DNA of 64,000 bases from Candidatus Uhrbacteria bacterium. GTDB taxonomy: Bacteria; Patescibacteriota; Patescibacteriia; UBA9934. A program made the translations under genes and the position numbers. Positions within the stretch are counted from its first letter, which is position 1. Every line of letters begins with the position of its first letter. The notes beneath the pieces were generated by a model. That model worked only from the letters and a program-made list of their open reading frames with translations, had not been told where the DNA came from and did no database searches. Positions 1,899 through 47,940 of the stretch are shown piece after piece. Location of the stretch: assembly GCA_943354605.1 (NCBI GenBank), contig CALRCK010000003.1:14902-78901 (forward strand). The letters run 5' to 3'.

Positions 1899-4733
1899 TT
1901 ATTTCCCATGACACTTCTTGAACTTCTTTCCACTTCCACAATGACATGGCTCGTTTGGACGAGGGTCCTTTGATGTGACGCTCTGGATCCCCGCCTGCGC
2001 GGGGATGACGGAGTCTGAAGGAATAGTGGCAGGATTCGATTCCTTCTTTTCTGCAGGCACATCAATCACTGTTGTTCCGCCGGAGGATTGTTGGGAGAGG
2101 AATTGAACGGCGTTGCGCATGAGCTGAGGAGCAGCTTCGAAGACGGCTTTTGCAGCGAGCTGTTGATCAATAATCTTGAAGAGGTTGTACGCCACTTCGC
2201 GGCCGAGTTCGGAGCGCATCGTGTTGTAGAGGCGGTAAGACTCGCGTTTGTATTCCACCAGCGGATCACGTTGAGCGTAGCCTTGAAGGCCGATAGTGCG
2301 GCGCAGGTACGTCATGTCATCAAGATGCTGCATCCAAAGTGTGTCGTTGGCGCGCAGCAAAATATTGCGTTCAAGCGCCATGAGATGTTTTGCATCGCCG
2401 AATTTTTCTACGGCACCGTCGTATGCGCGGCGAATCGCGCCGTTCACAATTTCAATGACGTGGCTACGCTGATGTGCGAGCTTTTCTTTATCAATGGAAA
2501 GCACCGAAAGCTCTTCACGAATCGCGGAAGACTCTGCGTCTTCGAGCTTCACGATTGCGCTCAAGCTCTCCACAATTTCCTGCGGATCCCAATCCGGCTT
2601 GCCCGTCGCCTCATCCTCAACGAAATCTTTTGGCACGTCGGCCTCTGCTTTGCTCGTATGGAAAAACACCACACGCTCAATTTCCTTTTCAATAATGGAA
2701 TGGACGAGCTCATGCGCCTTTGCTTCGCTCTTCATCACTTCTTTACGCTCGTTGTACACGGCGGTGCGATGCTTGTTCAGCACGTCGTCGTATTCCAACA
2801 CGTGCTTGCGGGTATCAAAGTGATGTCCTTCCACGCGTTGCTGAGACTTTTCGAGCGCACGCGTCACCATCTTGCTTTCGATTGGCGTGGAGTCGTCAAT
2901 GCCAAGTTTGTCCATCATCCCCTTCACGCGATCACTCCCGAAGATACGCATCAAATCGTCGTCGAGTGACACAAAGAATTGCGTGCTGCCCGGATCACCC
3001 TGACGGCCAGCGCGTCCGCGAAGCTGATTGTCGATGCGGCGCGATTCGTGGCGCTCGGTGCCGATCACGTGCAACCCGCCAAGTTTCTTCACATCCTCTG
3101 CCATTGCCGCATCCACCGGGTTTCCACCAAGCAAAATGTCCACGCCACGACCAGCCATGTTCGTTGCGAGAGTGACGGCACCCTTCCGACCAGCCTGCGC
3201 GATAATTTCACCTTCACGCTCGTGATTCTTTGCGTTCAACGTGTTGTGAACAATTCCCGCAGCAGTTAAAAACTTCGAAAGCGCCTCATTCTTCTCAATG
3301 GAAACGGTTCCGATGAGAACTGGTTGTCCGATTTCATTTAGGCGCTTCACCTCCTCAACCACCGCCATCCACTTCCCCATTTCATTTTTGTAAATACGGT
3401 CCGGCAAATCTTTACGTTTTGCTTCGTGGTTCGTTGGAATGGTGACGACGTCGAGCTTGTAAATCTTCGAAAACTCCTCCGCCTCTGTGGAAGCCGTTCC
3501 GGTCATGCCGGAAAGCTTTTCGTACATGCGGAAATAGTTTTGGAACGTAATCGTTGCGAGCGTCTTACTTTCACGCTGAATTTTCACGCCTTCTTTTGCT
3601 TCGATTGCTTGATGCAGACCTTCCGAATACCGGCGACCCTCCATGATGCGGCCAGTGAATTCGTCGACGATCACCACGTCGCCGCCACGAACCACGTAAT
3701 CGCGATCAATCTTAAACAACGAATGCGCCTTCAACGCTTGTTCCGCATGATGCACCATGGCAAGGCCTTCCTCGTACAAATTTTTCACGTTCAGCAAACG
3801 CTCCAACTTCTGCAAACCATTTTCGGTAAACGTGGAGACGCGCATCTTTTCGTCAATGTTGAAATCTTCACCCTCAACACAATGTTTGATGACGTCGGCG
3901 AAACGATAATACAAGTCTGCCGATTCCTGTGCCGCAGCAGAAATAATCAGCGGCGTGCGGGCTTCGTCGATGAGAATGGAGTCCACCTCGTCAACAATCG
4001 CGTAGTGTAATCCGCGTTGCACCACATCCTCAGCACGGCTCGCCATGTTGTCGCGCAAGTAATCAAAACCAAACTCGTTGTTTGTTCCATATGTAATGTC
4101 TGCAGCGTACGCTTCCGATCGCGACACTGGACGAAGCGAATCCGATGCAACGTGGAATCCCGCAACCGTCTCAGCACCTTCTGCTGGAGCTTCGACCTTA
4201 AAGTCTGCGTCGTACACGTAGCCACTTTCGTGCTGAATGCATCCAACGGTTAACCCAAGCGATGCAAACACGCGGCCCATCCATACAGAGTCGCGCTTTG
4301 CCAAGTAGTCGTTCACTGTTACCAAGTGCACGCCCTTTCCGGTGAGCGCGTTCAAATACGTTGGCGCGGTTGCGGTGAGTGTCTTTCCTTCACCCGTGCG
4401 CATTTCTGCGATCGAACCGCGATGCAACGTGAGTCCGCCCATCATCTGTACATCAAAATGACGCTGCCCCAGCACACGCTTGCTCGCTTCACGAACAACA
4501 GCAAACGCCTCATGCGCCATGGAATCGAGCGATTCACCGTTTGCGAGCCGCTCGCGGAACGCTTGTGTTTTCGCCTGTAACTCGTCGGCAGAAAGCGTTT
4601 TGAGGCCATCTTCAAAGGCGGCGATTTTCTCTGCATCTTTCCTGAGATTCTTCACTATTTTTGCGTTAGGATCACCGAAAATCGTGGAAAGGGAGAAGGC
4701 CATAGATGGCCAAATTATGCCTGATCTTCGCAA
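1899..4733 (-). CDS. secA: preprotein translocase ATPase SecA
   Basis: 944 aa. DEAD-like motor motifs (GEGKT, DEVDSILIDEARTPLIIS), SecA preprotein cross-linking and wing/scaffold regions, C-terminal zinc finger CHCGSGKKFKKCHGK. Contains an in-frame palindromic repeat insertion at 1983..2009. Confidence 0.97.
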   Translation of the reverse strand: MRRSGIIWPSMAFSLSTIFGDPNAKIVKNLRKDAEKIAAFEDGLKTLSADELQAKTQAFRERLANGESLDSMAHEAFAVVREASKRVLGQRHFDVQMMGGLTLHRGSIAEMRTGEGKTLTATAPTYLNALTGKGVHLVTVNDYLAKRDSVWMGRVFASLGLTVGCIQHESGYVYDADFKVEAPAEGAETVAGFHVASDSLRPVSRSEAYAADITYGTNNEFGFDYLRDNMASRAEDVVQRGLHYAIVDEVDSILIDEARTPLIISAAAQESADLYYRFADVIKHCVEGEDFNIDEKMRVSTFTENGLQKLERLLNVKNLYEEGLAMVHHAEQALKAHSLFKIDRDYVVRGGDVVIVDEFTGRIMEGRRYSEGLHQAIEAKEGVKIQRESKTLATITFQNYFRMYEKLSGMTGTASTEAEEFSKIYKLDVVTIPTNHEAKRKDLPDRIYKNEMGKWMAVVEEVKRLNEIGQPVLIGTVSIEKNEALSKFLTAAGIVHNTLNAKNHEREGEIIAQAGRKGAVTLATNMAGRGVDILLGGNPVDAAMAEDVKKLGGLHVIGTERHESRRIDNQLRGRAGRQGDPGSTQFFVSLDDDLMRIFGSDRVKGMMDKLGIDDSTPIESKMVTRALEKSQQRVEGHHFDTRKHVLEYDDVLNKHRTAVYNERKEVMKSEAKAHELVHSIIEKEIERVVFFHTSKAEADVPKDFVEDEATGKPDWDPQEIVESLSAIVKLEDAESSAIREELSVLSIDKEKLAHQRSHVIEIVNGAIRRAYDGAVEKFGDAKHLMALERNILLRANDTLWMQHLDDMTYLRRTIGLQGYAQRDPLVEYKRESYRLYNTMRSELGREVAYNLFKIIDQQLAAKAVFEAAPQLMRNAVQFLSQQSSGGTTVIDVPAEKKESNPATIPSDSVIPAQAGIQSVTSKDPRPNEPCHCGSGKKFKKCHGK
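1983..2009. repeat. family-1 palindromic element (GGATCCCCGCCTGCGCGGGGATGAC) inserted in frame in secA (encodes VIPAQAGIQ)
   Basis: 8-bp stem ATCCCCGC/GCGGGGAT around a 4-nt centre; same element at 17447, 43260, 56382, 56422, 62755. Confidence 0.8.
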
Positions 4734-16679: not shown

Positions 16680-18764
16680 TTATACTTGATGACGTCCTTG
16701 CGCCTTCTTTCGAGGTTTCTTCTTACCCATACCCGTCAACTCTTTACTGAGCATCGCAATCTCGTCTCGGAGAATCGCCGCGGTTTCGAATAAAAGGTTT
16801 GCCGCAGCGTTATCCATCTCAATTTCCTTCTCGCGAATCGCTTCCTCAATCTCCATTGGCGTTGCACTGATTTCGATATCGAGAATCTTCGACGTGTCGG
16901 CATCGAAATTCCGATCAAGTTCCGCACGAATATCCTTAATGGTCTTGATGATGGTCTGCGGTGTGATGTTGTGTACAACGTTGTACGCGATTTGAATGTT
17001 TCGACGGCGTTCGGTTTCCTTCAGCGCCCGGTCGAGCGATCCGGTCATCTTGTCCGCATACAAAACAACTAAACCGTTCACGTTACGCGCAGCGCGACCG
17101 ATCGTTTGGATGAGCGAGGTCTCCGATCGAAGGAACCCTTCCTTATCTGCATCGAGCACGCCAATAAGCGAAACTTCTGGAAGATCGAGGCCCTCACGAA
17201 GAAGGTTTACGCCAACCACAACGTCGTACGCACCGCGACGAAGCTCCGAAAGAATCGTGATTCGATCAAGCGTTTCAACATCGGAATGCAAGTACGCCAC
17301 CTTCATGCCACCTTCCTTGAGGTACGTCGCCAAATCCTCGGCCATTTTCTTTGTGAGTGTCGTCACGAGCGCGCGTTCGCCTTTCGTTACGCGGTCTTTG
17401 ATACGTTCGATGATATCGGCAACTTGGCCGGGATATTCAGACGCCGCTGGATCCCCGCCTTCGCGGGGATGACCAGAAACTGATGAGGCCGTCACTGGCA
17501 ACACCAGCGTCTCAGGATCGACTAATCCCGTTGGACGAATAATCTGCTCAACAATGTTCTGCGACGTTTCTTTTTCAACAACACCCGGCGTTGCCGAAAC
17601 ATAAACGGCTTGACCGATCGTTTCATCGAACTCCTGGTACGTCAGTGGCCGATTATCCTTCGCACTTGGTAGTCGGAAACCGAAATCCACCAACGTCTGC
17701 TTTCGTGCCTGGTCGCCCGCAAACATTCCACCAATCTGCGGAAGCGTGACGTGCGATTCGTCGATAATCGTCAAAAAGTCTTTCGGGAAATACGACAGCA
17801 GCGTGTGCGCCGGTTCACCAATACGTCGGCCGTCGAAATGGCGAGAGTAATTTTCAATGCCGCTGCAGTATCCAACGTTCCGGATCATCTCAATGTCGTA
17901 TCGTGTGCGGCGCATTAAGCGTTCCGATTCTAACAGCTTCCCTTCTTTTTCGAATTCCTTTAATCGATCAGCAAGCTCTGCCTCGATGTCGCGGATGGCG
18001 CGTTCGCGTTCGGTGCTGTCGGACATAAAGTGCTTTGCTGGGAAAAACCATGCGTCTTCGTTCTGCACGATAATCTTTCTCGTCACTTTATTCAACGCAA
18101 AAATTTCACGTACCGCATTGCCCTCGATGACGATGCGGTACACCGTTTCATCGCTTGGCGGCATCACCTCGATAACGTCGCCGTTTGCGCGGAAATGTCC
18201 ACGAGTCAGGTCCGCATTCGTTCGTTCGTATTGCATCGCCACAAGTTGGCGAAGAAACTCTGCGCGGTCGATACGGTCGTTGACGCGCAAATGAAGCACC
18301 TCGCGCTTGTACGCTTCCGGCGAACCCAAACCATAAATACAGCTCACCGATGCGACCACAATGACATCACGACGGGAAAGCAACGATTGCGTTGCTGCGT
18401 GGCGAAGACGATCAATTTCCTCGTTAATCTGTGCGTCCTTTTCAATATACGTATCGGTTCGCGGCATGTATGCCTCTGGCTGGTAGTAGTCGTAATACGA
18501 AACGAAATACGACACCGCATTCTCCGGGAAAAACTCCCGGAATTCGGAGCACAGCTGTGCGGCAAGTGTTTTGTTGTGCGCAATCACCAAGGTCGGCTTC
18601 TGCACGTTCTGAATAACGTTTGCCATCGTAAACGTCTTTCCCGAACCCGTAACCCCAAGCAACGTCTGCCGGTGCAGGCCGTCGTTGATGCCATCGGTGA
18701 GATCTGAGATGGCTTTCGGCTGATCACCGGCTGGCTGGTATTTGGATACGAGGTTGAACGACAT
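16680..18764 (-). CDS. uvrB: excinuclease ABC subunit B
   Basis: Start reassigned to MSFNLVSKYQPAGDQPKAI (canonical UvrB N-terminus). Helicase motifs (GVTGSGKT, DESH), beta-hairpin, C-terminal UVR domain. Contains an in-frame palindromic element at 17447..17473 encoding SGHPREGGDP. Confidence 0.95.
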   Translation of the reverse strand: MSFNLVSKYQPAGDQPKAISDLTDGINDGLHRQTLLGVTGSGKTFTMANVIQNVQKPTLVIAHNKTLAAQLCSEFREFFPENAVSYFVSYYDYYQPEAYMPRTDTYIEKDAQINEEIDRLRHAATQSLLSRRDVIVVASVSCIYGLGSPEAYKREVLHLRVNDRIDRAEFLRQLVAMQYERTNADLTRGHFRANGDVIEVMPPSDETVYRIVIEGNAVREIFALNKVTRKIIVQNEDAWFFPAKHFMSDSTERERAIRDIEAELADRLKEFEKEGKLLESERLMRRTRYDIEMIRNVGYCSGIENYSRHFDGRRIGEPAHTLLSYFPKDFLTIIDESHVTLPQIGGMFAGDQARKQTLVDFGFRLPSAKDNRPLTYQEFDETIGQAVYVSATPGVVEKETSQNIVEQIIRPTGLVDPETLVLPVTASSVSGHPREGGDPAASEYPGQVADIIERIKDRVTKGERALVTTLTKKMAEDLATYLKEGGMKVAYLHSDVETLDRITILSELRRGAYDVVVGVNLLREGLDLPEVSLIGVLDADKEGFLRSETSLIQTIGRAARNVNGLVVLYADKMTGSLDRALKETERRRNIQIAYNVVHNITPQTIIKTIKDIRAELDRNFDADTSKILDIEISATPMEIEEAIREKEIEMDNAAANLLFETAAILRDEIAMLSKELTGMGKKKPRKKAQGRHQV
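17447..17473. repeat. family-1 palindromic element (CTGGATCCCCGCCTTCGCGGGGATGAC) inserted in frame in uvrB
   Basis: Same stem ATCCCCGC/GCGGGGAT as the other copies; read here in a different frame from secA and GT1. Confidence 0.8.
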
Positions 18765-22862: not shown

Positions 22863-22995
22863 ATAATCTGATTTTAACATGCTCGCTGACGCCAAAACAG
22901 GAACACATGAATTTTCGCTGACGGTTTACAGCAAGAACAACATTCTGTAGAATGAACGGGCTTTATATGGTTTCGACTGAATAGAGTAACCGGAT

Positions 22996-23025
22996 AGAAC
23001 CTTCTCCTCAAAACAGAAGGTTCTC
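22996..23025. other. perfect 10-bp stem hairpin AGAACCTTCT-N10-AGAAGGTTCT
   Basis: Located 25 nt upstream of ncRNA-like element A; the stem sequence resembles the closing helix of element B (GAGAACCTTCC). Confidence 0.4.
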
Positions 23026-23051
23026 TGTACGGCTTAATTCTGGTGACACTT

Positions 23052-23175
23052 TAGAACTTTCTCATTTTAGGCTAGTTTCGGCGCGCAAGGAGCAAAGTTC
23101 GCGAGGCGTACTCATGGTACGGCGAGCGAGTTTGCAACAAAGCAAGCCGAAAATAGTCAAAATGAGGAAGTTCTA
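23052..23175 (+). ncRNA. candidate structured RNA, copy A (family shared with 61031..61158)
   Basis: 124-nt element closed by a 17-bp helix TAGAACTTTCTCATTTT / AAAATGAGGAAGTTCTA. Conserved core blocks AGTTTCGGCGCGC, GGCGTACTCATGGTACGGCG and AGCAAGCCGAAAAT are shared with copy B. 5' TTTCGGC pairs with 3' GCCGAAA. Ends 8 nt upstream of tRNA-Trp. Strand inferred from co-orientation with the tRNA. Confidence 0.5.
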
Positions 23176-23183
23176 AGACATGA

Positions 23184-23257
23184 AGGGGCGTCGTATAATG
23201 GTAGTACAACGGTCTCCAAAACCGTTAGCGTGGGTTCGATTCCCCCCGCCCCTGCCA
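23184..23257 (+). tRNA. tRNA-Trp (anticodon CCA)
   Basis: Cloverleaf: acceptor AGGGGCG/CGCCCCT, anticodon arm ACGGT-CTCCAAA-ACCGT, T-loop TTCGATT, discriminator G, encoded CCA. One U-C mismatch in the T stem. Confidence 0.85.
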
Positions 23258-24751
23258 CGAGAGACGGTCATCGCAAGGTGACCGTTTTTCGATTGCAAAA
23301 TACGGTTGTTTCAGCGAAAAAATCGGCTCTCCGTCCGTAAGTTTCGAGTTCGATAGTAAAAACTGTGCCAATTCCCGTTTTTCGTCAGGAGTGGCTTCTT
23401 TCGCCAGTTTCTCGGCGTTTTCTGCGAGTTCCAAAATCCTACAGCCGAATTGGTAATAACTGATGTCAGCGCGGTTGTGTTTCGCCATGCGGACTTCAAG
23501 ACTTTCGAGCTGCTTGGTGTAGTCGGCAAACTTCGCATCGTAAAAGCTCTCGGTGATTTTCTTATCGAGGCGGTCTTCGTACAATGCGTCGATACGCTTC
23601 TTGAGGCGCGTCTGGTCAGCGACAAGGCTCTCGAAAGCCTTATCCTCCCCCTCGCGCTTCTGCGACAGCGACTGCTTGAGTGCGGCGGTTACAAACGCAA
23701 CGCCTGCATCGCTGATTTTCAGGATGTTCGTCAGCTTGTCGAAACGTTCGTCGATTGTTTCTTCTTTGACCCACGGCTGGTCGCAGTTCGTGTTGTACTT
23801 GGTGCAATGGTAGTAGTTGTAACGACCCTTCGCCTTCTCTGCGGTAATCGACCGAGCGCATACGCCGCAAGTAAACATTCCCTTGTACGCAAACGGCATG
23901 ACGTTATGCTCTTTGCGCATATTCAAATTGCGCCCGCTGATGACGTCTTGCACTTTTGCCCACAGCTCCGAGGCAATAAGAGGCTCGTATGAGCCTTGTA
24001 TCATCTTGCCGTTCCACTCAAACCTCCCAACGTAGAACGTATTGACGAGGCAACGCTGCACCGTGGAAACATACAGCTTACCGCTCTTGATGACGGGTGG
24101 GAGGTTGAGCGTCAGCCCTTCGGCTTCGAGCTTGGTAATAAGTGACTTCATCGAGTAAATGCCCGAGGCGTAGTACTCAAACATTTTGACGATGAGTTGG
24201 CGGTTCGCAGGGTCAGGAATGACGATGTTGTGTTTGGGGTTGAGCGGGTCTTTCGCGTTGAGGTAGCCAAGGGGAGCTTGGCGCGGATATTCTCCGTGCG
24301 AGATTTTGATGTCAAAACCCTTTTTTACTTCCTCCTTGAGGTTGTCGATAAAACCCTTCGCCAATACAGTCTTGAGGCCGTGCATGAGTTTGTCCGACGC
24401 GCGGCTGTCTTTTCCGATAGAGCCGCCCTCTTTCACCAGCCAAACGGTCACACCGAAATTGTCGGTCAGTTCTTCGATAGCGACGTAGTCCGTAAAGTTG
24501 CGATGGAGGCGGTCGGTCTTTTCGACGAGAATGTGCTTGATGTCCTTTGCTTTGACGTAGGCCAGCATCGCGGCGAACTCCTTGCGTCGGCTGTCCTTGG
24601 CCGTCTCTGCCTCCTCAAACTCTTTTGCGACCTCAAAGCCGTTACGACGAGCAAAGTCGTAGAGAGCAACGCGCTGTGCCTCGGGGGAGAAGCCCTGCTC
24701 GGCCTGCTCCTTGCTCGACACACGGACGTACATGACGGCTTTCTTGAGCAT
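23225..24751 (-). CDS. large serine recombinase (integrase)
   Basis: Start at MLKKAVMYVRVSSKEQ (resolvase/invertase catalytic serine motif). Recombinase domain, zinc ribbon CGVCARS...YYHC, long coiled coil. The last 11 codons (...GESNPR) overlap the 3' 33 nt of tRNA-Trp, as in tRNA-inserted integrative elements. Confidence 0.85.
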   Translation of the reverse strand: MLKKAVMYVRVSSKEQAEQGFSPEAQRVALYDFARRNGFEVAKEFEEAETAKDSRRKEFAAMLAYVKAKDIKHILVEKTDRLHRNFTDYVAIEELTDNFGVTVWLVKEGGSIGKDSRASDKLMHGLKTVLAKGFIDNLKEEVKKGFDIKISHGEYPRQAPLGYLNAKDPLNPKHNIVIPDPANRQLIVKMFEYYASGIYSMKSLITKLEAEGLTLNLPPVIKSGKLYVSTVQRCLVNTFYVGRFEWNGKMIQGSYEPLIASELWAKVQDVISGRNLNMRKEHNVMPFAYKGMFTCGVCARSITAEKAKGRYNYYHCTKYNTNCDQPWVKEETIDERFDKLTNILKISDAGVAFVTAALKQSLSQKREGEDKAFESLVADQTRLKKRIDALYEDRLDKKITESFYDAKFADYTKQLESLEVRMAKHNRADISYYQFGCRILELAENAEKLAKEATPDEKRELAQFLLSNSKLTDGEPIFSLKQPYFAIEKRSPCDDRLSWQGRGESNPR

Positions 24752-24753
24752 AT

Positions 24754-25377
24754 CTATAGATGAGAGACGGCAACCATCATTGAAATCGTCAGTACAGCTA
24801 TTCCGAACCCGAAGGTGAGAAAGCAAGCGTACTGCAAGAATGCCTTTACGCTTACGGCAAATGCATTTTTTCCGTCGAGCTCATCGCACAACTTTTTGTC
24901 ATTGGCCAAGTATTCAGCTTCTTGCGCGGCGTATGCTTCCTTGCTACCGCCTCCCGTGAGCACGACAGTAAGACCAGTACCGAGATACTGGATTTTTGCT
25001 TGGCGTAAACGCTGACGCTTCTTGAGCCATTCCGTAGCGGCAGTCCAGTAAATATGCCGAGCATTGAACCAACGAACAAATAGTCCGCTAATAAACGCGG
25101 TGAGCATCAATGACCAGGCTACAAACAATGTGTATTTCAAGGGATGACCAAGAAAAATTGCATCGAATGGCCTGCTCGTTGCGTTTGCTACTGAGCCAAC
25201 AAAGGTAAGGCTCAATGAAATAATCGCGGCGGAATACAAGGTAATCTTTTCCGAGACTTCCACGAGGTCTTTATTTACATTTATTTGCGTCAGGTCGAAA
25301 TGCGTTGCGGCCTTGCTCAATGCATCGCTACTTTGCGACATTTCCGCGTGAACAGCAGTCGGGTTGAAGTCCGTCAT
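24754..25377 (-). CDS. hypothetical membrane protein (element cargo)
   Basis: 207 aa with 3-4 hydrophobic helices; stop abuts the integrase start. Confidence 0.4.
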   Translation of the reverse strand: MTDFNPTAVHAEMSQSSDALSKAATHFDLTQINVNKDLVEVSEKITLYSAAIISLSLTFVGSVANATSRPFDAIFLGHPLKYTLFVAWSLMLTAFISGLFVRWFNARHIYWTAATEWLKKRQRLRQAKIQYLGTGLTVVLTGGGSKEAYAAQEAEYLANDKKLCDELDGKNAFAVSVKAFLQYACFLTFGFGIAVLTISMMVAVSHL

Positions 25378-25391
25378 AGATTGCTTTCATT

Positions 25392-26573
25392 TTATATTAT
25401 CTCCTCATCAATAGCGACCCCGAGTATCGCCTCGAGCTTCTTGGGGAGGACAGGACAGAAGGCTGCGAGTTTGCGCTGTAAGTACGGCACAATGCCGACA
25501 ACGTCCTTCTTTGCCTCGGCCTTCGCGAGGATGTTTTCGACCGCTTTTTTGTACCGTGTCACGGTTGCGGGTGAAGCTTCGCGTTTCAGCTCCTCAATAG
25601 CAGTCTTGAGGCCGTGGTCACGGACACGATGCGCGAGGTAGTAAAGAATAGCGCGGTCGCGGAAGTCGTCCGCATACTCCCCGATGAGGCGTTGTAGTTC
25701 GGTATTCTTGAGGTCGCTCAAACGAACAAGGCGGTTGAAGTCTTTGACGTACACGTTCTCGAACGTTCGTACGAGTACCTTCTTTGCTATGTCAGCCTTC
25801 GCTGCTTCTTGCAGGGTGTACCCCTTCTTTTTTATGGCGGCGGAAAATTGCCGCAAGGTCGCGTCTACGGTCTGTCTCTTTTGTAACGATAGCTCGATGC
25901 GGAGTGCGCCCTTTGTCCATTTGCCCGCCTTGTACTGCCGCGCAATTTCTTGTTCGAGCTGCGTCTTGCCATTGGTCGCGATTTCATCGAACTTGTCGTA
26001 CAAAACAAAACCTTGCGAGGAGTTGTAGTACTTCAAGTAAAAACCGTCCTTCCCGTCGTGATAATCGCGTCGGTTGAAGTCCGAAGACTGCTTCATGTCA
26101 TACGGCATCAGCGCACGGAGCATTTGTGCCGTCGTCCCGAAGCTCGGACTGATTTGCAGGATTTTCGAGTAGTCTATGCGGTACACGATAGCTCCCAACA
26201 CATCCTCGGGCTTTACGCCGACTTTGATTTCTTTGAGTGCATCGACGAGCTTCTTGGCGACGAGGGGGAGCAAACGTTCGTCCATATCGAAGATGCTTGC
26301 CCCGAACAGGAGTTTGGGGAGTGATACTTGCACGACGAGCTGACGCTCCGAAGGCACCATGCCGCGTTTGGTGCGCCGTGAACGTTCGGTAATATGTACC
26401 TGTGGGAAATACTTCCCCTCGGCCTTGCAACGCTGTGGGTAGTCCGTGTAGCGCGTGGTGAAGCGTCCGAAGACGCCGTACTTGCCTTTGAGCTCCTGAT
26501 GCTGCGCCTTGGTGAAGAACTCGTCGGAGTACGTCACGAAGTTCGTAATGTGAATGGTGACGCTGTCTATCAT
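25392..26573 (-). CDS. putative replication initiation protein (Rep_trans-like)
   Basis: 393 aa; the FVLYDKFDEI (YDK) motif and overall size fit rolling-circle Rep_trans initiators of phage and integrative elements. Assignment from motif memory only. Confidence 0.4.
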   Translation of the reverse strand: MIDSVTIHITNFVTYSDEFFTKAQHQELKGKYGVFGRFTTRYTDYPQRCKAEGKYFPQVHITERSRRTKRGMVPSERQLVVQVSLPKLLFGASIFDMDERLLPLVAKKLVDALKEIKVGVKPEDVLGAIVYRIDYSKILQISPSFGTTAQMLRALMPYDMKQSSDFNRRDYHDGKDGFYLKYYNSSQGFVLYDKFDEIATNGKTQLEQEIARQYKAGKWTKGALRIELSLQKRQTVDATLRQFSAAIKKKGYTLQEAAKADIAKKVLVRTFENVYVKDFNRLVRLSDLKNTELQRLIGEYADDFRDRAILYYLAHRVRDHGLKTAIEELKREASPATVTRYKKAVENILAKAEAKKDVVGIVPYLQRKLAAFCPVLPKKLEAILGVAIDEEII

Positions 26574-26740
26574 ACGAGTTGGGGCTTGGCTTTTATGCGG
26601 GTGTCGATGCGGAGCAATACCTCAAAGGCTCCGAGCAGATTTCTTGCTGCGTCGGGTATTTCTTCAGGGGCGAGGCCAAGCTCGTCCACGAAGTAGCGTT
26701 GCGCCAATTCTTCGAGGTTGGGTTCATCTTCGGGCAACAT
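26570..26740 (-). CDS. small hypothetical protein translationally coupled to the Rep-like gene
   Basis: 56-codon ORF (MLPEDEPNLEELAQRYFVDELGL...) whose TGA overlaps the Rep ATG (ATGA). Absent from the track because it is under 60 aa. Confidence 0.3.
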   Translation of the reverse strand: MLPEDEPNLEELAQRYFVDELGLAPEEIPDAARNLLGAFEVLLRIDTRIKAKPQLV

Positions 26741-26803
26741 AAAAGCTCCGAGCCGTAATATCAGCCGTGACAGGCTGTATAGACGCGGAGCTGTGGGTTG
26801 ATT

Positions 26804-26832
26804 ATTGAACGCACGACAAGTTCGTTCTATAA
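26804..26832 (+). promoter_or_regulatory. near-consensus sigma-70 type promoter TTGAAC-17-TATAAT
   Basis: TTGAAC at 26804..26809, 17-bp spacer, TATAAT at 26827..26832. Points rightward into a hairpin plus T-tract at about 26877..26912, suggesting a very short transcript or an antisense RNA against the ImmA gene 3' end. Confidence 0.4.
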
Positions 26833-26900
26833 TGCCCGTGGGTAGTAGCTTTCGCGTTTACGCAGCTATTATTGATAAGCCGTCTGTTTGCGCAGGCGGT

Positions 26901-27539
26901 TTATTGTTTTTGTAGGCTGTAGTCAGATACGCAGATTTCCATCATTTTCACAGATACCGCGAACTCAGTTGCGAGGCTACGGATCACCCATCGGTCATCG
27001 TGTTCGATAGCACGGGCGTATGCGCGTTTCAGTACTGGGTACGGAGCGAGGTAGTACGATGCGGTGATTTCCGCAACGCGCTCAATGATGTTCTGTCGCT
27101 CGACGGGGTCGGCTATGGCTTCCATGTCGGCCATGAACTCCCCATCAAACCGCTGAAGGATATGGGCGAACTCATGAGCGATGGTGAAGCGTTGACGTTC
27201 GCGTGGTACATCGTTTGCGACAAAAATGCGGATAGTACCCTCGTCCACGATGTCGTACATTCCGTCGATGTTCAGGCCGTGCTCGGTGGGGTTGAACGGA
27301 TAGTACTCAAACAAGAAGCCGTTGAGATACTGTGACATGGGTGCGAAGTTGATGGGGACACTCACCGTGTCGGCGTTCATGAATACCTTGTGCACGATGT
27401 CACGGAAGTGATGTTTCCACTTCTTTACCTTCTCCATGTAGAGCGGGCTGCATTGTCCATATCGTGGTCGCTGACGTGTCTTTTTGCGTAATACATACGC
27501 GCACGTTTCATCGGGAAGCTCGGGAGTAGTCGGGTTCAT
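26901..27539 (-). CDS. ImmA/IrrE family zinc metallopeptidase
   Basis: 212 aa with FTIAHEFAHIL, the HEXXH motif in the COG2856/DUF955 (ImmA/IrrE) context. Confidence 0.75.
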   Translation of the reverse strand: MNPTTPELPDETCAYVLRKKTRQRPRYGQCSPLYMEKVKKWKHHFRDIVHKVFMNADTVSVPINFAPMSQYLNGFLFEYYPFNPTEHGLNIDGMYDIVDEGTIRIFVANDVPRERQRFTIAHEFAHILQRFDGEFMADMEAIADPVERQNIIERVAEITASYYLAPYPVLKRAYARAIEHDDRWVIRSLATEFAVSVKMMEICVSDYSLQKQ

Positions 27540-27545
27540 ACGTTT

Positions 27546-28409
27546 TTACTCCAAGGCTTTGGGTTCCTCGGGCTTCGGGATGAAGTTATCAGGGGTAATA
27601 ACCGACTTTCCTGTGACGTCTTCGATTTCTTTTCGGGCATTGCCTGCGATACTCGCGCCCTTTTGTGCAGCCGCATGATTTGCATCAAATCCGTTCGCAT
27701 CGGCGTTTCGTGCGATTTCCGCAGTACTTGCCTCTGCAAGCATATTGATAACGAGCTCAAGCGGTGACATATGGTCACGCAGGTTTTCATCCGTCAGGTT
27801 CTTGAACTCTTTGTACTGACGGGTTGTCTTACCTGACCAACCTTTGTAAATGTCGTTCGTGAGGATTGCGTAGCCGTAGCCTTCGATGCCACGTTTTCGC
27901 CATTCGTTCGTGAGCTCGTTGCGCACTTCAATCGTGCGGAGACGACGACTAATCCATTCGTCGTCATAGCCTTTGCGGGCGTATGTGCCAAGGGCACGAT
28001 GAATGCCTTTTTCAGGGTCTTTGATTTCCTCGATACGCTCGAAGCCGACCCGCGCAAGCCATTGCTTGATGGGCTCTGCCTTGGGCGATGGGACGCTCTG
28101 AATGACACGGAGCAGGGTCTCCGTATCGGTACACTCGGTCGAGCGTTTTTTGCCATCCTTCGCGGTGAACTTCAACTTTACGATTTTCTCGTAAAGTTCA
28201 AATCCCTCCTCTTTGAGCTTGGCTTTGAGGTCGTTCCAGTAGCGGCTCGGAACGCTGCTTTCGGTGATGATGCCAACAACGTCGATGACGCTGAAGTACC
28301 ATTTCTCGGCTTCGGGGTTCCAGCGGCGACGAACGTCCCTATCCTCAAAGCGAATAATGGAAAGGTCGTTATCTGACGCTTGCGGTGGCTGGGTAGTAGT
28401 GTCGGCCAT
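27546..28409 (-). CDS. Bro-N / DinD-like (DNA-damage-inducible protein D family) protein
   Basis: Start at MADTTTQPP...; N-terminal LSIIRFEDRDVRRRWNPEAEKWYFSVIDVV resembles the Bro-N domain, and the overall layout resembles DinD. The ATG is 2 nt downstream of the XRE gene stop. Confidence 0.5.
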   Translation of the reverse strand: MADTTTQPPQASDNDLSIIRFEDRDVRRRWNPEAEKWYFSVIDVVGIITESSVPSRYWNDLKAKLKEEGFELYEKIVKLKFTAKDGKKRSTECTDTETLLRVIQSVPSPKAEPIKQWLARVGFERIEEIKDPEKGIHRALGTYARKGYDDEWISRRLRTIEVRNELTNEWRKRGIEGYGYAILTNDIYKGWSGKTTRQYKEFKNLTDENLRDHMSPLELVINMLAEASTAEIARNADANGFDANHAAAQKGASIAGNARKEIEDVTGKSVITPDNFIPKPEEPKALE

Positions 28410-28410
28410 A

Positions 28411-28758
28411 CTATTTCTTGGTCTTGCGCTTGCTCTCCAAATAATTGACGTGACCAACGATTTCGTTGATTTCGTCAGGGGAGAAGCTGCGCTGACGCAA
28501 TGCGTTTGCGAGCATCTGCGTAGCGTTCGGTGTTGAATTATCATCGAGAAGGCCAACAGCGGCGAGGAAGTCCCTGAATGTCATTCCAAGCCCTTCTGCA
28601 AGCTGTTTGCTCTTGTCGATGGAGAGTGTCTTGTAGAGCCCTGCCTCAAGTTTCGATATAAACCCAACGGAAATGTCTGCGCGACGTGCAAGCTCGTTTT
28701 GTGACAAGCTGTTTTGCTCGCGTAGTTCTTTGAGACTCTTGTGAAGTGGTTTCGTCAT
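28411..28758 (-). CDS. XRE-family helix-turn-helix transcriptional regulator
   Basis: HTH LSQNELARRADISVGFISKLEAG. Together with the downstream ImmA protease it forms a classic ImmR/ImmA-like switch. Confidence 0.75.
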   Translation of the reverse strand: MTKPLHKSLKELREQNSLSQNELARRADISVGFISKLEAGLYKTLSIDKSKQLAEGLGMTFRDFLAAVGLLDDNSTPNATQMLANALRQRSFSPDEINEIVGHVNYLESKRKTKK

Positions 28759-38922: not shown

Positions 38923-39966
38923 TCAGGAAGCCTTGGAATCGTCAAGGTATTTCGCTAACAGGCTAATGCCAATAACGGCCAAAATGCCCAGAATTCCCAA
39001 CGCAATCACCTTTTGCCAGCTCGCGAAAAGCAGGCTCGTTACCCCAAACGCCAGAGCAATACACGAATAGAGCAACGTCACCCGCCTCGGTGAAAGGCCG
39101 GCGTCGCGGAGCATAAAGTGGAAATGACGGCGATCCGCGGTGGTGAACGGGTTCTTGCCAGCTCGATATCGGCGAACAGCCACAATGCCGACATCAATTG
39201 CGGGAATACCAAGAACGAGAAGTGCAGTTGCCATCTTACTGCCGGCGATGACAGAGAGAACGCCAACGGTGAATCCAAGTACCGTACTTCCAGATTCACC
39301 AAGGAAAATCTGTGCCGGATGCCAGTTCCATAAAATGAATCCGAGGATCGATCCCGAGAAGATCAGTGCAAGAAGCGCCACGTCGGATTGGAAATATGTT
39401 GGCGTCAATGCAAGCGCGGCGATCATCAACGACCCGACCAGTGAAACGCTCGATGCCAAACCATCTACACCATCGAGGAGCTTCGTTGTCATGGTCATGG
39501 CAAGAATCCAGACGAACGCGACGACCGATGCCGCGATCGGGGCGAGGACGATGACGCCGCCGAGCGGATTCGTCATCTTCGCAACGTTGATTCCGCCGAA
39601 CACCGCAACGAGCGACGCGAGAACGAATAGCGCCATTGAATACTTCGCCGAAATCGTGAACCGATCATCGATCACGCCGCCGATCGTGAGGATCGCGATG
39701 CCGACAAAGAACCCAATGAAGTGATGAATGCCGATCGCGCCGCTTGTGAGTTCGGACGATGAAAGAAGAACACCAATCGTGACGATCGAAAAACTCGCAA
39801 CAATCGCGAGGCCACCGAGCAATGGCGTTGGTTCGCGATGAAGCTTTCGCCCACCATCCGGCGAATCGATCACGCCGAATCGCAACGCCAATACTCGAAC
39901 GACCGGCGTAAGCCAAGCCGAGATCAAAAATGCGAGAGCGATGGGAATTGGCCACCAGGAAACCAT
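38923..39966 (-). CDS. glycosyltransferase family 4 (MraY/WecA-like polyprenyl-phosphate HexNAc-1-phosphate transferase)
   Basis: 347 aa, about 10 TM helices; DDRF and GVDGLA motifs typical of MraY/WecA-family transferases. Confidence 0.7.
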   Translation of the reverse strand: MVSWWPIPIALAFLISAWLTPVVRVLALRFGVIDSPDGGRKLHREPTPLLGGLAIVASFSIVTIGVLLSSSELTSGAIGIHHFIGFFVGIAILTIGGVIDDRFTISAKYSMALFVLASLVAVFGGINVAKMTNPLGGVIVLAPIAASVVAFVWILAMTMTTKLLDGVDGLASSVSLVGSLMIAALALTPTYFQSDVALLALIFSGSILGFILWNWHPAQIFLGESGSTVLGFTVGVLSVIAGSKMATALLVLGIPAIDVGIVAVRRYRAGKNPFTTADRRHFHFMLRDAGLSPRRVTLLYSCIALAFGVTSLLFASWQKVIALGILGILAVIGISLLAKYLDDSKAS

Positions 39967-40107
39967 ATACCCGAAGTCTACTGCGAGTTTCTCATTTGTG
40001 GCTAGTTTCGATGAAGATCGAGGAAAGCTTGCGAGACGTACTTCATGTGTACGTTGAGCAAGTTTCCGATGATCTGAGTCGAAAATAGACCAAAGGAGGA
40101 AGTCGCA

Positions 40108-41514
40108 CTAGGAAGGTATTAGTCCAGGGATCGCTTCGCTCATTGTGGGATACGCGTGGATCATTGACTGGACCGCATCGATCGTAATTCCGGCGGACAT
40201 TGCGAGTGCAAGCTCGTGAATTACTTCACCGGACCGATCGCCGAGCATTGATGCCCCAAGGATGAGATTCGATTTCTTTTCGACAAACACTTTCAACAGA
40301 CCAATGCGTTCGCTCTCAATGACGGCACGACCGAGCGCGCCAACGGGAAACTTCCAAACGGTGAATGATTTCTTTTTCGCAACAAGCTCGTCGGGCATTG
40401 CGCCAACCGATGCAAGTTCTGGTGCCACGAATGTGACGCGAGGAACAACAGAAAGATCGACGCTCGCGTACTTTTTCTTTCCTTGCGCGAGAAATGCCGC
40501 GTTTTTTCCCGCGATTGTTCCTTCGTGATGTGCGGTGTGGGTATATGCTGGCAAACCAGAAACGTCTCCAGCGAGAAATAGTGATTGCCCTTTTATGCGC
40601 ATCGCAGCGTCGATGGTGATGCCACCCGTCGCATTGCGTTTTACTCCTGCGTTTTCAAGATTCAACGATTCAACATTCGGCGCACGGCCAGAAGCGACGA
40701 GAAGCTTTTCCACGCGAACCGTTTTCCGTGGTTCCGATTTCGTTTGGTACGTGACCCGAATCTGCCTGCCGGATTTTGCTACACCGAGTACACGCGTAGC
40801 GCCGTGGAATGCCACGCCGCGATGCATGAGTGTTTTTGCCGCAAGCGCCGCAGTTTCCGCGTCTTCGCGCGGAAGGAAACGCTCAGCGATATCAAAAACA
40901 ATCACGGGAATGCCAAGTAAGGAAAAGAATGTCGCGAACTCGCAACCAATCGGACCGCTTCCAAGAATGCCGATGGATTCTGGAAGTTCCGTTATCGACG
41001 TTGCTTCGCGTGGCGTCCAATACTCGATAGAATCGATCCCCGCGATCGGCGGGATCTTCGAAACCGATCCCGTTGCAATAACAAACGACTTCGCACTAAT
41101 GATGTGCGTGCCGACGCGAATCGATTCGTCGTCGATGAAACTTGCGGCGCCACGGAAAATTGTCACCTTTTCGCTTTCAAGAATCTTTTCCAATCGGCGA
41201 TTCCCCGTCATTGCGTTCACCACCGCATCTTTTCGCTCCATCATCGCCGAAAGGTTGAACGTGAGACGCTTGACGTCAATACCGAATCGCCCACCGTTTC
41301 GTCGGATATCGTCGTATCGCACAGCAGCAGCGAGCATCGACTTTGTTGGAACGCACGCGTAGTTTGGACATTCGCCACCAAGTTTGTCGGAAGAAACAAT
41401 CGCGACACTCGCGCCTTCTTGTCGCGCCGCAAATGCCGCGGAAAGGCCCGCAGAGCCTCCGCCAATAACGACGACATCGAATCCAGTTTTATGCGCAATC
41501 TTTTTCACTGGCAT
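40108..41514 (-). CDS. FAD-dependent pyridine nucleotide-disulfide oxidoreductase (dihydrolipoamide dehydrogenase / MerA-like)
   Basis: Start at MPVKKIAHKTGFDVVVIGGGSAGLSAA; redox-active GGECPNYACVPTK, second NAD-binding GxGxxG, C-terminal dimerisation domain. Confidence 0.75.
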   Translation of the reverse strand: MPVKKIAHKTGFDVVVIGGGSAGLSAAFAARQEGASVAIVSSDKLGGECPNYACVPTKSMLAAAVRYDDIRRNGGRFGIDVKRLTFNLSAMMERKDAVVNAMTGNRRLEKILESEKVTIFRGAASFIDDESIRVGTHIISAKSFVIATGSVSKIPPIAGIDSIEYWTPREATSITELPESIGILGSGPIGCEFATFFSLLGIPVIVFDIAERFLPREDAETAALAAKTLMHRGVAFHGATRVLGVAKSGRQIRVTYQTKSEPRKTVRVEKLLVASGRAPNVESLNLENAGVKRNATGGITIDAAMRIKGQSLFLAGDVSGLPAYTHTAHHEGTIAGKNAAFLAQGKKKYASVDLSVVPRVTFVAPELASVGAMPDELVAKKKSFTVWKFPVGALGRAVIESERIGLLKVFVEKKSNLILGASMLGDRSGEVIHELALAMSAGITIDAVQSMIHAYPTMSEAIPGLIPS

Positions 41515-41516
41515 AT

Positions 41517-42866
41517 CTACACAACAAGCGGAAGATCTCTCCAAACCTTCTCATCACCACGCAGCAACGATTCCACACGATATGCGCCGTGTGTTGGTGC
41601 ATTCGTAAATCCACTCCACGCCATACGCGCGAGTGCGCCGCTTTCAATCCAATCGAACAACCATTCGTTCATGTATTGCGGTGCAAGACCATCCGCGCCT
41701 CCCCCAACATACGTCAGCCATGCGCGATTAAAGTCTTCTTGGCTTCCCACCGTTGGTGCCATGATGATCGGAATCGCCAAGCCGGTGTAGAACGAAAGTT
41801 CGGACGGCTTCGTCCACAAAATATCCGTCTTGCGCATCAGCTTCGAGAATGCAGAAAAATACGCAGGACGATTATCCTCAAACAAAATCGTCACACGACC
41901 AGCACGCTTCGCACTAACCAATCCGTCCAATCGAATCTCGCGCTCAAAGAATTCGTTCACTTCTGGTCGTGTTCCCGCAACAAGATTTACGATGATTCGG
42001 CCAGCACGAATGTCGCTTGCCAACGATCGCAATGCAAGCGCGACAAGCTCTCGCTGTGTTCCTGCGCCACCGACCGCGAATGTAATGGACGGCGTTGTTG
42101 GCTTTACCGCACAGAATTGTTTTCCAAATGTTGCATCGAGGAGCGAATGCGCCTTTGCAACAAAGTTTCCGTGCGGATCAAGATTGCACATGCGGCGTTG
42201 CAAGTCGGCACGAACATATTCTGGAACGTGCGGACCACCAACGGTTTCAAACGGCAACGGAAATCCCGTCAGCGTAATGTTCTTTTCCTTCACGCCGTAC
42301 AATTTTAATCGCTCGACCACGCGACCGGTCGGAGCGAGGTATTTGATTCTGCTCTTCTTTGGATTCAACGGAACCCAAGCCCGTGCGATATCGGCGTCGC
42401 AAAGAACGATGTAAATATCCTCAGGGTAATCGAATTCTTCTGCAGCGAATGCGGGAGTAAAAAACGTCGAAACGATCGGAAGCGGACGTTCTTTAAACCG
42501 TTCGATCAGGTCGCGACACATCCCCTGTCGTCGAATGAGCGCGTACGTTTGCCGGACTTGCAGACTCGGCTTTGAGAGATCGCGTCGCGGATAAAACTCC
42601 GGGATGCGCTGCATCTTGTCCATGATACCGAACGCAGCGGTTCCCAGAATTGGGACGTTCTTGAATCGGGAAACGAATTCGTAAAAACTCTTCCCCGTCT
42701 CCCAAAGCCTTCGCTCGTGGGCAGGGATGCCTGGATAATCGTTCGCCACGGTCACTTGCCCGCCTGGCGCCAAGTGGCGCAATGCAAACGCGGCCCGCTC
42801 GTGGCCATAGCCCATATTGACCGCAACAACGTGCGCCAATGCTTTCCCCCTTGATTTTTCCTCCAT
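41517..42866 (-). CDS. GT-B glycosyltransferase, MGDG synthase / UgtP-like (GT28)
   Basis: Start placed at MEEKSRGKALAHVVAVNMGYGHERAA. Resembles the UgtP N-terminal TASYGNGH motif; downstream blocks parallel UgtP (LCDADIARAWV vs MTDFCLHKIWV; LTGFPLP vs ITGIPIRP). Upstream part of the track ORF is antisense to rpmB and rejected. Confidence 0.4.
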   Translation of the reverse strand: MEEKSRGKALAHVVAVNMGYGHERAAFALRHLAPGGQVTVANDYPGIPAHERRLWETGKSFYEFVSRFKNVPILGTAAFGIMDKMQRIPEFYPRRDLSKPSLQVRQTYALIRRQGMCRDLIERFKERPLPIVSTFFTPAFAAEEFDYPEDIYIVLCDADIARAWVPLNPKKSRIKYLAPTGRVVERLKLYGVKEKNITLTGFPLPFETVGGPHVPEYVRADLQRRMCNLDPHGNFVAKAHSLLDATFGKQFCAVKPTTPSITFAVGGAGTQRELVALALRSLASDIRAGRIIVNLVAGTRPEVNEFFEREIRLDGLVSAKRAGRVTILFEDNRPAYFSAFSKLMRKTDILWTKPSELSFYTGLAIPIIMAPTVGSQEDFNRAWLTYVGGGADGLAPQYMNEWLFDWIESGALARMAWSGFTNAPTHGAYRVESLLRGDEKVWRDLPLVV

Positions 42867-43227: not shown

Positions 43228-43259
43228 GTTTTCATCTAACTCAGCCATTATCTTTTTCA

Positions 43260-43286
43260 GTCATCCCCGCGAAGGCGGGGATCCAG
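43260..43286. repeat. family-1 palindromic element (GTCATCCCCGCGAAGGCGGGGATCCAG), intergenic
   Basis: Opposite orientation relative to the secA, uvrB and GT1 copies. Confidence 0.8.
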
Positions 43287-43420
43287 ACATCGCTCCGTGG
43301 CGACTCGGGTATCAATTTTTCTGCTGCGTCACACGACGCTACGCCGCGACGTCTCACCTTCGGTTCGACTGCGGCTGTGCATCCAGGTAGCCTCGCTGAA
43401 AAATTGATACCACTCGTCGC

Positions 43421-47533: not shown

Positions 47534-47595
47534 AGAATATCCTTGAGGATAGCGCTAAACAATAAAAAACTCCAACGACAAATCGTTGGAGTTTT

Positions 47596-47671
47596 TTGGA
47601 GCCACAGTCGGGGATCGAACCCGAGACCTCATCCTTACCATGGATGCGCTCTACCATCTGAGCTACTGCGG
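47596..47671 (-). tRNA. tRNA-Thr (anticodon GGU)
   Basis: Reverse complement GCCGCAGTAGCTCAGATGGTAGAGCGCATCCATGGTAAGGATGAGGTCTCGGGTTCGATCCCCGACTGTGGCTCCA folds into a cloverleaf; anticodon loop ATGGTAA; CCA encoded. Confidence 0.8.
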
Positions 47672-47704
47672 CGTATGAGAAAGGCTCGTTGCCGAGCTTT
47701 TCTC

Positions 47705-47790
47705 ATGGTGGGTTGGGAGGGATTCGAACCTTCGAAGGCGCAAGCCAAGAGATTTACAGTCTCTCCTCGTTGACCGCTTGAGTACCAACC
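47705..47790 (-). tRNA. tRNA-Tyr (anticodon GUA), class II with long variable arm
   Basis: Reverse complement GGGTTGGTACTCAAGCGGTCAACGAGGAGAGACTGTAAATCTCTTGGCTTGCGCCTTCGAAGGTTCGAATCCCTCCCAACCCACCA; anticodon arm AGAGA-CTGTAAA-TCTCT; CCA encoded. Confidence 0.8.
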
Positions 47791-47794
47791 CATG

Positions 47795-47919
47795 GTGGGA
47801 CGAACCTATTTGGCCAATTTTGGGCTTGCAGCATCGAAAACTTTTTCAACGTACTGTGAAGTACGTCTCAAAAGCTTTTCTCGCCACGCACCCAAACTTG
47901 ACGCAAATAGCTTCGTCCC
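47795..47919 (-). ncRNA. structured spacer RNA candidate in the tRNA cluster, with tRNA-like acceptor stem and 3' ACCA but no cloverleaf
   Basis: Minus-strand sequence begins GGGACGA and ends TCGTCCCACCA (7-bp acceptor-like helix plus CCA). Inner stacked helices CTATTTG/CAAATAG, TTTGGG/CCCAAA, perfect hairpin ACGTACT-TCAC-AGTACGT and palindrome AAAAGCTTTT. Not a canonical tRNA. Confidence 0.3.
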
Positions 47920-47940
47920 ACAGTCACGCTCAATTTTTCA

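Follow-up and report, generated by a model that had tools for sequence, protein, structure and literature searches.

Correia elements (CREE or NEMIS) of Neisseria are short, non-coding, high-copy MITEs (miniature transposable elements with inverted repeats) that reside in intergenic regions, carry a TA target duplication and have ends that form an RNA hairpin when co-transcribed. The elements that are the subject of this work, four of which (copies A to D) lie in a 64-kb stretch of contig CALRCK010000003.1 of a Candidatus Uhrbacteria bacterium (hereafter the window), are like Correia elements in being short (100-155 bp), high-copy and intergenic, and in having inverted-repeat ends, target duplications and presence/absence variation between strains. 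They differ from Correia elements in that the duplication is 5 bp long rather than TA, the entire element is a hairpin, the arms vary between subfamilies yet stay complementary, and one end adjoins genes for tRNAs or transfer-messenger RNA (tmRNA). We consider it likely that these elements constitute a previously undescribed, non-autonomous, MITE-like transposable family of about 125 nt that inhabits the small genomes of Patescibacteria (the Candidate Phyla Radiation, CPR); as a kind of object the family is ordinary, and it is the host that is unusual.

Two other groups of extragenic repeats offer partial parallels. Judging from background knowledge, the ERIC/IRU sequences of Enterobacteriaceae are also imperfect palindromes of about 127 nt that occur in transcribed spacers, in either orientation, and form a long RNA hairpin; however, they share no sequence similarity with the elements described here and belong to another host phylum, and we know of no one-orientation association of ERICs with the ends of tRNA genes. 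The repetitive extragenic palindromes and their mosaics (REP/BIME) are comparable in being extragenic palindromes with compensatory conservation of the hairpin and a high copy number, but REPs are only 20-40 nt long, start with a GTAG head and show no duplication, whereas the present elements are about 125 nt long, lack GTAG and are associated with a 5-bp duplication.

Copies A and B were singled out by the original prediction as two homologous elements with three shared sequence blocks and complementary terminal arms, and both the blocks and the arms read as described at the coordinates given in Table 1. The prediction that there are two copies in the window was too low: A and B are indeed homologous, and a repeat search of the window revealed two overlooked copies, C and D, bringing the total to four in 64 kb, with a mean identity of 72%. 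The four copies are far beyond chance because a covariance model built from them assigns 126-140 bits to the named strand of each (E ~1e-36 to 1e-41), compared to 25 bits for the best other match in the window; the opposite strands of the copies score 36-56 bits. Copies A and B each fold into one long imperfect hairpin (-64 kcal/mol, z = -10.7, and -79 kcal/mol, z = -11.6, respectively), none of 200 shuffled sequences folds as well, and the reverse complements of A and B fold more weakly by 13-15 kcal/mol. In the consensus fold of copies A to D, 25 of the 52 pairs have changed on both sides with pairing kept. As for the four arm differences between A and B that had been taken as fully compensated, the compensation holds, although one of them is a one-sided change from U-G to C-G rather than a double substitution. 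The two copies are overlapped only by short mechanical open reading frames (ORFs), in agreement with the prediction that neither lies in a coding sequence.

Beyond the window, a strict pattern of the conserved core was scanned against 185,579 genomes, one per species, and matched 74 loci in 13 metagenome-assembled genomes (MAGs), nine of which are labelled Patescibacteria, Candidatus Uhrbacteria or Saccharimonadales and four 'uncultured Gammaproteobacteria'. In these loci (541 kb in total), the covariance-model search for further homologues identified 126 distinct elements, in every one of which the named strand outscores the opposite strand by 60-90 bits. The typical element is 123-126 nt long, has termini of the form TAG(G/A)AC...GT(C/T)CTA and encloses only trivial ORFs; mean identity across the family is about 65%. 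In one Uhrbacteria MAG, the 31 blocks of 8 kb that were fetched contain at least 61 copies, and the other genomes contain 1 to 20. A metagenome scan chiefly returned the same Hainich groundwater genomes and hence amounts to a partial replication only, and no match was obtained when viral contigs were scanned for the family pattern. A comparison of the window, copies A and B and 18 related loci with Rfam yielded no family at the gathering threshold and only miRNA-type chance matches (E >=0.006) at relaxed thresholds, as the original prediction had anticipated, and a literature search within the paper library produced no earlier description of the element or of MITEs in Patescibacteria.

Some observations bear on the limits of the family. 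In two species (L009, 3210-3333; L059, 4452-4587), tRNA-Arg(cct) is directly followed on its 3' side by a much more diverged hairpin of the same size and architecture, with arms that start with ATGGTCATTTAAA and a retained apical stem of the CGTAC..GTACG type; given that this hairpin is barely detected by the model (36 bits) or is missed, the count falls short of the full breadth of the family. In the same two loci, a perfect palindrome, AATTGTTTCACGTGAAACAATT, recurs just past the units that consist of a tRNA gene and an element (L009, 3346-3367 and 3775-3796; L059, ~4430-4450) and could be either a binding site for a protein or a terminator that lacks the T run. The four genomes labelled 'uncultured Gammaproteobacteria' (loci L002, L003, L012, L018, L027, L028, L046, L049, L050, L053, L054, L069 and L074) are third-party assemblies, and near-identical copies are common to genomes with this label and Uhrbacteria/Patescibacteria genomes (98% identity between L005 and L074, 93% between L074 and L022); the Gammaproteobacteria label of these four genomes may be wrong.

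Evidence that the family is mobile DNA comes from its youngest members, about eight copies at unrelated loci of one Uhrbacteria genome that are 96-99% identical to one consensus. Target-site duplications were sought in 93 copies, with the boundaries fixed at TAG(G/A)AC...GT(C/T)CTA and shuffled flank pairings used as the control. Four copies are flanked by perfect 5-bp duplications (TGTTT, AGATT, AATAG and ATGAG), compared to 0.17 expected, and six more have flanks that match at four of the five positions, compared to 2.06 expected. The perfect duplications all belong to TAGGAC-type copies of the Uhrbacteria TrH-103 genome; those in L044 and L034 surround canonical young copies (98-99% identical to the young consensus), and the remaining two surround copies with 96% (L004:7601) and less than 85% (L052:5930) identity to it. 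Older copies, including A to D, show no 5-bp duplication at their flanks; all four copies of the window, which are 64-86% identical to the young-subfamily consensus and lack any recognisable target duplication, are old relics.

Insertion polymorphism is also apparent. The divergently oriented pair of tRNA-Ser(gga) and tRNA-Pro(cgg) genes is accompanied by three elements in L031 and by none in L040, and upstream of tRNA-Leu(gag) a clean indel of about 121 nt separates a filled site (L057) from an empty one (L053). In variants of 167-194 nt, small hairpin repeats of other kinds are nested within the internal loops, and deletion derivatives include an 83-nt form without the apical domain as well as core-only fragments. 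In the spacers of co-directional protein genes, three copies are in the sense and four in the antisense orientation, and copy C of the window is antisense as well. The family thus combines short non-coding sequence, terminal inverted repeats, a duplication of fixed length, and dispersed near-identical copies with insertion polymorphism, which, an autonomous partner apart, are the features by which MITEs are recognised. The original prediction held that compensated changes in the arms speak against a transposable element; this argument is not supported, given the duplications, the burst of young copies, the filled and empty sites, the nested insertions, the deletion derivatives and the occurrence of both orientations.

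The nested repeats are of two kinds, GACCCCGCC..TCGCGA..GGCGGGGTGA and AAGGTATGAAGTAAGCGCTTCGCTTTACTTCATACCAAG, and are found in L038:5319-5512, L020:5019-5212, L066:2284-2450, L037:4929-5106, L073:6608-6782 and other loci; several families of hairpin repeats parasitise each other in these small genomes. A number of elements are located within operons of core genes (L036, 1359-2095; L035, 6147-7825; L044, 1178-2231): one element lies on each side of the gene for ribosomal protein S7, one ends 3 nt before the start codon of smpB, another adjoins the 3' end of tmRNA, and a further pair flanks a gene for an NYN-domain protein, 5 nt before the start of the polynucleotide phosphorylase gene. The possibility that such facing elements enclose an unannotated RNA gene was rejected because the enclosed genes code for proteins (ribosomal protein S7 and the NYN-domain protein). 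Owing to a conserved U-G pair, the right arm reads GAGG where the complement of the left arm reads GAGA, and judging by this motif the right arm could serve as a portable ribosome-binding site.

Under the transposon scenario, the element would depend for its movement on a transposase that acts in trans and makes cuts staggered by 5 bp; the 5-bp duplication points to a DDE-type enzyme, not to HUH/RAYT. The hairpin would be kept because active lineages need it, for the synapsis of the ends or for a single-stranded intermediate, or alternatively because RNA transcribed from resident copies does no harm only if it is self-paired. Insertions would survive in the very short spacers of compact genomes, above all against tRNA and tmRNA genes, where they would be tolerated because normal tRNA processing removes the extra RNA.

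The whole element is a nearly complete palindrome that forms one hairpin of 52 pairs on the named strand. In an alignment of 102 copies that was fitted to the model (a fit that adds little given the near-constant length of the copies), 93.0% of the cells are paired, compared to 77% in shuffles and 33-45% with slid partners; both-side changes occur at 39 of the 52 pairs, and the covariation score is 0.456, compared to 0.169 in shuffles and ~0.08 with slid partners. Conserved secondary structure backed by covariation, as is characteristic of non-coding RNA genes, is therefore present. The outer helix measures 17-18 bp in every copy, with the sequence of its arms kept within subfamilies and not across them, and conserved motifs recur, inverted, in the two halves (CATTT/AAATG, (A)GTTTCG/CGAAA(A)T and CGTAC/GTACG). 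Cells with G-U outnumber those with A-C by about 10:1 (433 vs 45) and, outside six columns in which G-T is the family consensus, by ~87 to 36; in addition, conservation extends to a G.A mismatch within AGTTT/AAAAT and to an internal loop of tandem GA/GA that borders the apical hairpin CGTACTTCATGGTACG. The G-U excess and the conserved G.A features imply that pairing is constrained on one strand only. In the precedence of structure over sequence and in functional imperfections confined to one strand, the elements resemble the attC sites of integrons; none of the other attributes of attC sites (cassette arrays, an integrase, R and L boxes, the lack of a duplication) applies here.

Thus, the hairpin on one strand matters, whereas covariation does not distinguish between constraint at the level of RNA, constraint on single-stranded DNA during transposition and palindrome-correcting errors. 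The constraint could act in active lineages, through the bringing together of the ends or the folding of a single strand, on the RNA of resident copies or, to a minor degree, through replication errors that correct the palindrome. The suggestion of selection for an RNA helix or a cruciform is accordingly borne out insofar as a one-strand hairpin constraint is seen.

A property of the family that deserves attention is its strict polarity at genes for structured RNAs, as counted by combining model matches with tRNA scans of the fetched loci. At about 20 distinct tRNA and tmRNA sites, the end that faces the RNA gene is always the right one (the 3' end of the named strand), with no counter-example; the sole left end near a tRNA is that of copy D, which is sandwiched between two tRNAs. 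Copies located upstream share the strand of the tRNA and stop 0-8 nt short of the mature 5' end (Ser-gct, Ser-gga, Ala-cgc, Arg-cct, Asn, Asp, Thr-cgt, Gln, Pro-cgg, Leu-gag, Trp and Tyr, with Met at 13 nt), and copies located downstream are on the opposite strand and start 0-3 nt past the encoded CCA (Ala-cgc, Arg-cct, Gly-ccc, Gly-tcc, Pro-cgg, Val-tac and tmRNA). An element directly adjoins approximately two thirds of the genes for tRNAs and tmRNA that the fetched loci contain. At the ends of protein genes the bias is weak, with 11 stop codons within 12 nt of the right end vs 6 within the same distance of the left end.

Selection on the adjoining nucleotides cannot explain this polarity because the two ends are nearly identical in sequence. 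Tentatively, and with less confidence than in the mobile nature of the family, we suggest that the family recognises the precise borders of mature tRNA and tmRNA genes in a fixed orientation or has been retained there: either a bacterial transposition system reads the base of the acceptor-stem dyad, in a structure-guided fashion that is mirrored on the two sides of the gene, or selection retains the copies beside tRNA genes as domesticated hairpins with a role in processing or insulation. Target choice would account for the mirrored orientation because, owing to the acceptor stem, one end of a tRNA gene mirrors the other; domestication is suggested by the compensated changes through which tRNA-flanking copies diverge between species. 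Two other possibilities were considered and abandoned. Inspection of the young consensus by eye detected no convincing promoter of the sigma-70 type on either strand, which leaves no support for an outward promoter as the cause of the polarity, and a processing stem formed, as in rRNA, by an upstream sense and a downstream antisense copy was rejected because the copies that flank one tRNA differ in their arms.

Orientation towards RNA genes has precedents among mobile elements. Tn7-like transposons generate a 5-bp duplication and insert in a fixed orientation toward a conserved gene, and some of them use tRNA genes. The 5-bp duplication and the facing of a conserved gene by one end are the only traits in common with the present family, which has TAG...CTA rather than TGT...ACA termini, lacks site arrays of the TnsB type and abuts the RNA gene itself, upstream or downstream, instead of keeping a fixed distance on the downstream side; the ORFs scanned include no tnsABC or tniQ genes. 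Ty3 and the Dictyostelium elements TRE5 and DGLT-A are retroelements that are guided by RNA polymerase III factors to oriented insertion near tRNA genes. Their insertion only a few nucleotides from tRNA genes, and in one particular orientation, is no more than a functional analogy, the present family being bacterial and having duplications of the DNA-transposon type.

Several observations weigh against a transposable family and have to be set beside the evidence for it. The duplications are confined to one young subfamily of one MAG. No transposase domain and no autonomous partner was detected among 30 ORFs of the window and 10 ORFs of the loci, the end motif GGACTTTCTCATTT used in the search for such a partner does not occur outside recognised copies, and lone half-elements are absent from 541 kb and 308 kb of fetched loci. 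The outer arms differ between subfamilies (TAGGAC.., CAAAAC.., GTGAAC.., GGGGAC..), which is unusual for terminal repeats bound by a transposase, and a strict polarity of one end to tRNA genes is not expected of a simple MITE with near-identical ends. Furthermore, the copies that abut tRNA genes are mostly old, and of the eight young copies a single one has a tRNA nearby, 22 nt away. Finally, copies that occupy one and the same site are separated between species by 5 double compensated changes at the 3' end of tmRNA (83% identity) and by 10 at the 3' end of tRNA-Ala (70% identity), compared to rough estimates of ~0.5 and ~2, respectively, expected by chance; this divergence hints at selection on resident copies or, alternatively, at repeated insertion or gene conversion.

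The last of these observations leads to the alternative that fares best, namely that the element is a functional structured RNA, a cis-acting module of pre-tRNA or operon transcripts under locus-by-locus selection. It might act as a processing or stability element that recruits RNase III or blocks exonucleases, or as a stable hairpin RNA released by RNase P, and in this form, which is compatible with a mobile origin, it would apply at least to tRNA-flanking copies as domesticated ones. We view this possibility as doubtful, although several observations are on its side. Pairing is strand-specific, with the G-U pairs, the G.A mismatch and the tandem GA/GA loop on the named strand only; copies upstream of tRNAs are always in the sense orientation, between the promoter and the tRNA, as in L031, where a promoter-like sequence (TTGCTG-17-TATCAT) lies just 5' of the element, and likewise at the promoter-like sites of the window; at tRNA or tmRNA sites occupied in more than one species, the hairpin is kept via the double compensated changes given above; and the abutting copies are old and do not belong to the recent burst. 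However, the copies downstream of tRNAs, along with about half of those in mRNA spacers, are transcribed antisense, which turns the G-U and G.A features into mismatches and weakens the fold by 13-20 kcal/mol. Many tRNAs of related genomes have no element, copy number ranges from 1 to more than 61 between genomes, and the likeness of same-site copies could stem from independent insertions at a hot spot or from gene conversion. An arrangement that is sense upstream and antisense downstream is also not the consistent orientation of a stand-alone non-coding RNA gene. Hence, what is supported of the originally predicted structured RNA family is a homologous, covarying and strand-specific structure, and what is not, given the hallmarks of mobile DNA, is a dedicated RNA gene.

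A second alternative, which we regard as improbable, is a palindrome that functions at the DNA level and is maintained although no folded strand is under selection, with symmetric protein-binding sites and arms that are kept complementary by template-switch (quasipalindrome) correction, mimicking compensatory evolution. Long, nearly perfect inverted repeats are known substrates for template-switch mutation, and every conserved motif is repeated, inverted, in the two halves. Such correction is symmetric, though, and should remove G-T and A-C mispairs alike, contrary to the 433 vs 45 cells observed, and it does not explain the lasting G.A mismatches and the bulge, which persist uncorrected. The least plausible alternative, a REP/BIME-type element mobilised through a single-stranded hairpin by a RAYT (an IS200/IS605-like HUH enzyme), would fit the strand-specific hairpin with structure conserved above sequence and the presence of smaller, GC-rich REP-like hairpins in the same genomes, but is rejected on account of the 5-bp duplications at young copies, given that HUH single-strand transposition leaves no target duplication, and is further disfavoured by a length of 3-4 times that of REPs, the lack of a conserved 5' GTAG and the absence of RAYT-like genes among the scanned ORFs of the window.

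With the transposable family as the favoured interpretation, several implications follow. The genomes of Patescibacteria are among the smallest and most streamlined, and yet one of them devotes roughly 1% of its DNA to copies of this element, some of which, despite the streamlining, are inside core operons (the S7 gene, smpB, tmRNA and many tRNAs). A family of mobile DNA that passes covariation tests as clearly as this one is a trap for RNA-motif discovery and a caution to screens based on covariation. If target choice underlies the polarity, bacteria would have a counterpart to the targeting of tRNA genes by eukaryotic retrotransposons; if it reflects selection, the tRNA-flanking copies would be transposon-derived modules of pre-tRNA processing.

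Table 1. Copies of the element in the 64-kb window and features of their gene contexts.
Feature	Coordinates	Strand	Sequence features	Covariance model (bits)	Context and remarks
Copy A	23052-23175	+	termini TAGAAC...GTTCTA	138.9	5' leader of tRNA-Trp
Copy B	61031-61158	+	termini GAGAAC...GTTCTC	126	
Copy C	39982-40107	+	right terminus GTCGCA	125.7	
Copy D	47796-47920	-		139.5	between tRNA-Thr(tgt) and tRNA-Tyr
Promoter-like site	22925-22953	+	TTTACA-17-TAGAAT		10/12 matches; ~100 nt upstream of copy A; consensus match only
Short hairpin	22995-23026		AGAACCTTCTCC..AGAAGGTTCT		25 nt upstream of copy A; z -2.95; arms like outer arms of copy B
tRNA-Trp(cca)	23184-23257	+			copy A on its 5' side
Strong hairpin with T run	23258-23291	+			directly after tRNA-Trp; -23.9 kcal/mol, z -6.7
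Glycosyltransferase gene	38923-39966	-			neighbour of copy C
Dihydrolipoyl dehydrogenase-like gene	40108-41544	-			upstream neighbour of copy C
Intrinsic-terminator-like hairpin and T run	47564-47597	-			closes the Thr-D-Tyr-Thr operon
tRNA-Thr(ggt)	47597-47672	-			last gene of the copy D operon
tRNA-Tyr(gta)	47706-47791	-			copy D on its 5' side
tRNA-Thr(tgt)	47942-48017	-			first gene of the copy D operon
Promoter-like site	48041-48070	-	TTGCCA-18-TACGAT, with TG		upstream of tRNA-Thr(tgt); consensus match only

Within the window, copies A and D are, judging from the order of sequence signals, almost certainly co-transcribed with their tRNAs in the sense orientation. The right end of copy A is 8 nt before tRNA-Trp, as had been predicted; the site at 22925-22953 is a candidate promoter of a joint transcript, and the hairpin that follows the tRNA is probably its terminator. 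Copy D stops 3-4 nt short of tRNA-Tyr, on the same strand as the tRNAs, and is a sense inter-tRNA spacer, given that a promoter-like site, tRNA-Thr, copy D, tRNA-Tyr, the second tRNA-Thr and a terminator follow each other in this order. RNase P cuts pre-tRNA at the 5' end of the tRNA; such cleavage would free A as a leader fragment and D as a spacer fragment. The short hairpin 25 nt upstream of copy A may be a relic of the family that retains only the arms, deletion derivatives being known at other loci.

Copies C and B are found in other settings. The spacer occupied by copy C is 141 nt long and separates two genes of the minus strand within an operon, so that the copy is transcribed in the antisense orientation; the dihydrolipoyl dehydrogenase-like gene ends in a TAG stop codon (CTA on the plus strand, 40108-40110) that is directly outside the right terminus and falls within the extended outer helix. 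Copy B is located 160 nt downstream of a plus-strand ORF whose end is at 60868; on its other side, about 180 nt without remarkable features, neither tRNA-like nor notably structured, separate it from the terminator of the convergent gene 61370-62101. Reading by eye, we noticed two mini-ORFs past copy B, in an otherwise unannotated stretch, each with good Shine-Dalgarno spacing: one in 61172-61203 (GGAGG-7 nt-ATG, encoding MAIVHK*) and one in 61260-61292 (GAGGTGGG-..-ATG, encoding MAYINFG*).

Two further features of the window deserve mention. Directly 3' of tRNA-Trp, a stretch of the minus strand (23225-28556) has the appearance of a small integrated element and encodes a large serine recombinase, a 207-aa protein, a rolling-circle replication initiator similar to Phage_CRI/G2P (25392-26573), a peptidase of the M78/IrrE type (26901-27539) and a Bro-N protein (27546-28556); this stretch is possibly an inovirus-like prophage for which tRNA-Trp serves as the attachment site. 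A second repeat family of the window is represented by six occurrences, in both orientations, of a GC-rich, REP-like hairpin, GTCATCCCCGCGAAGGCGGGGATCCAG, at 1983-2014, 17447-17478, 43257-43288 and 62755-62786 and as a back-to-back pair at 56371-56457.

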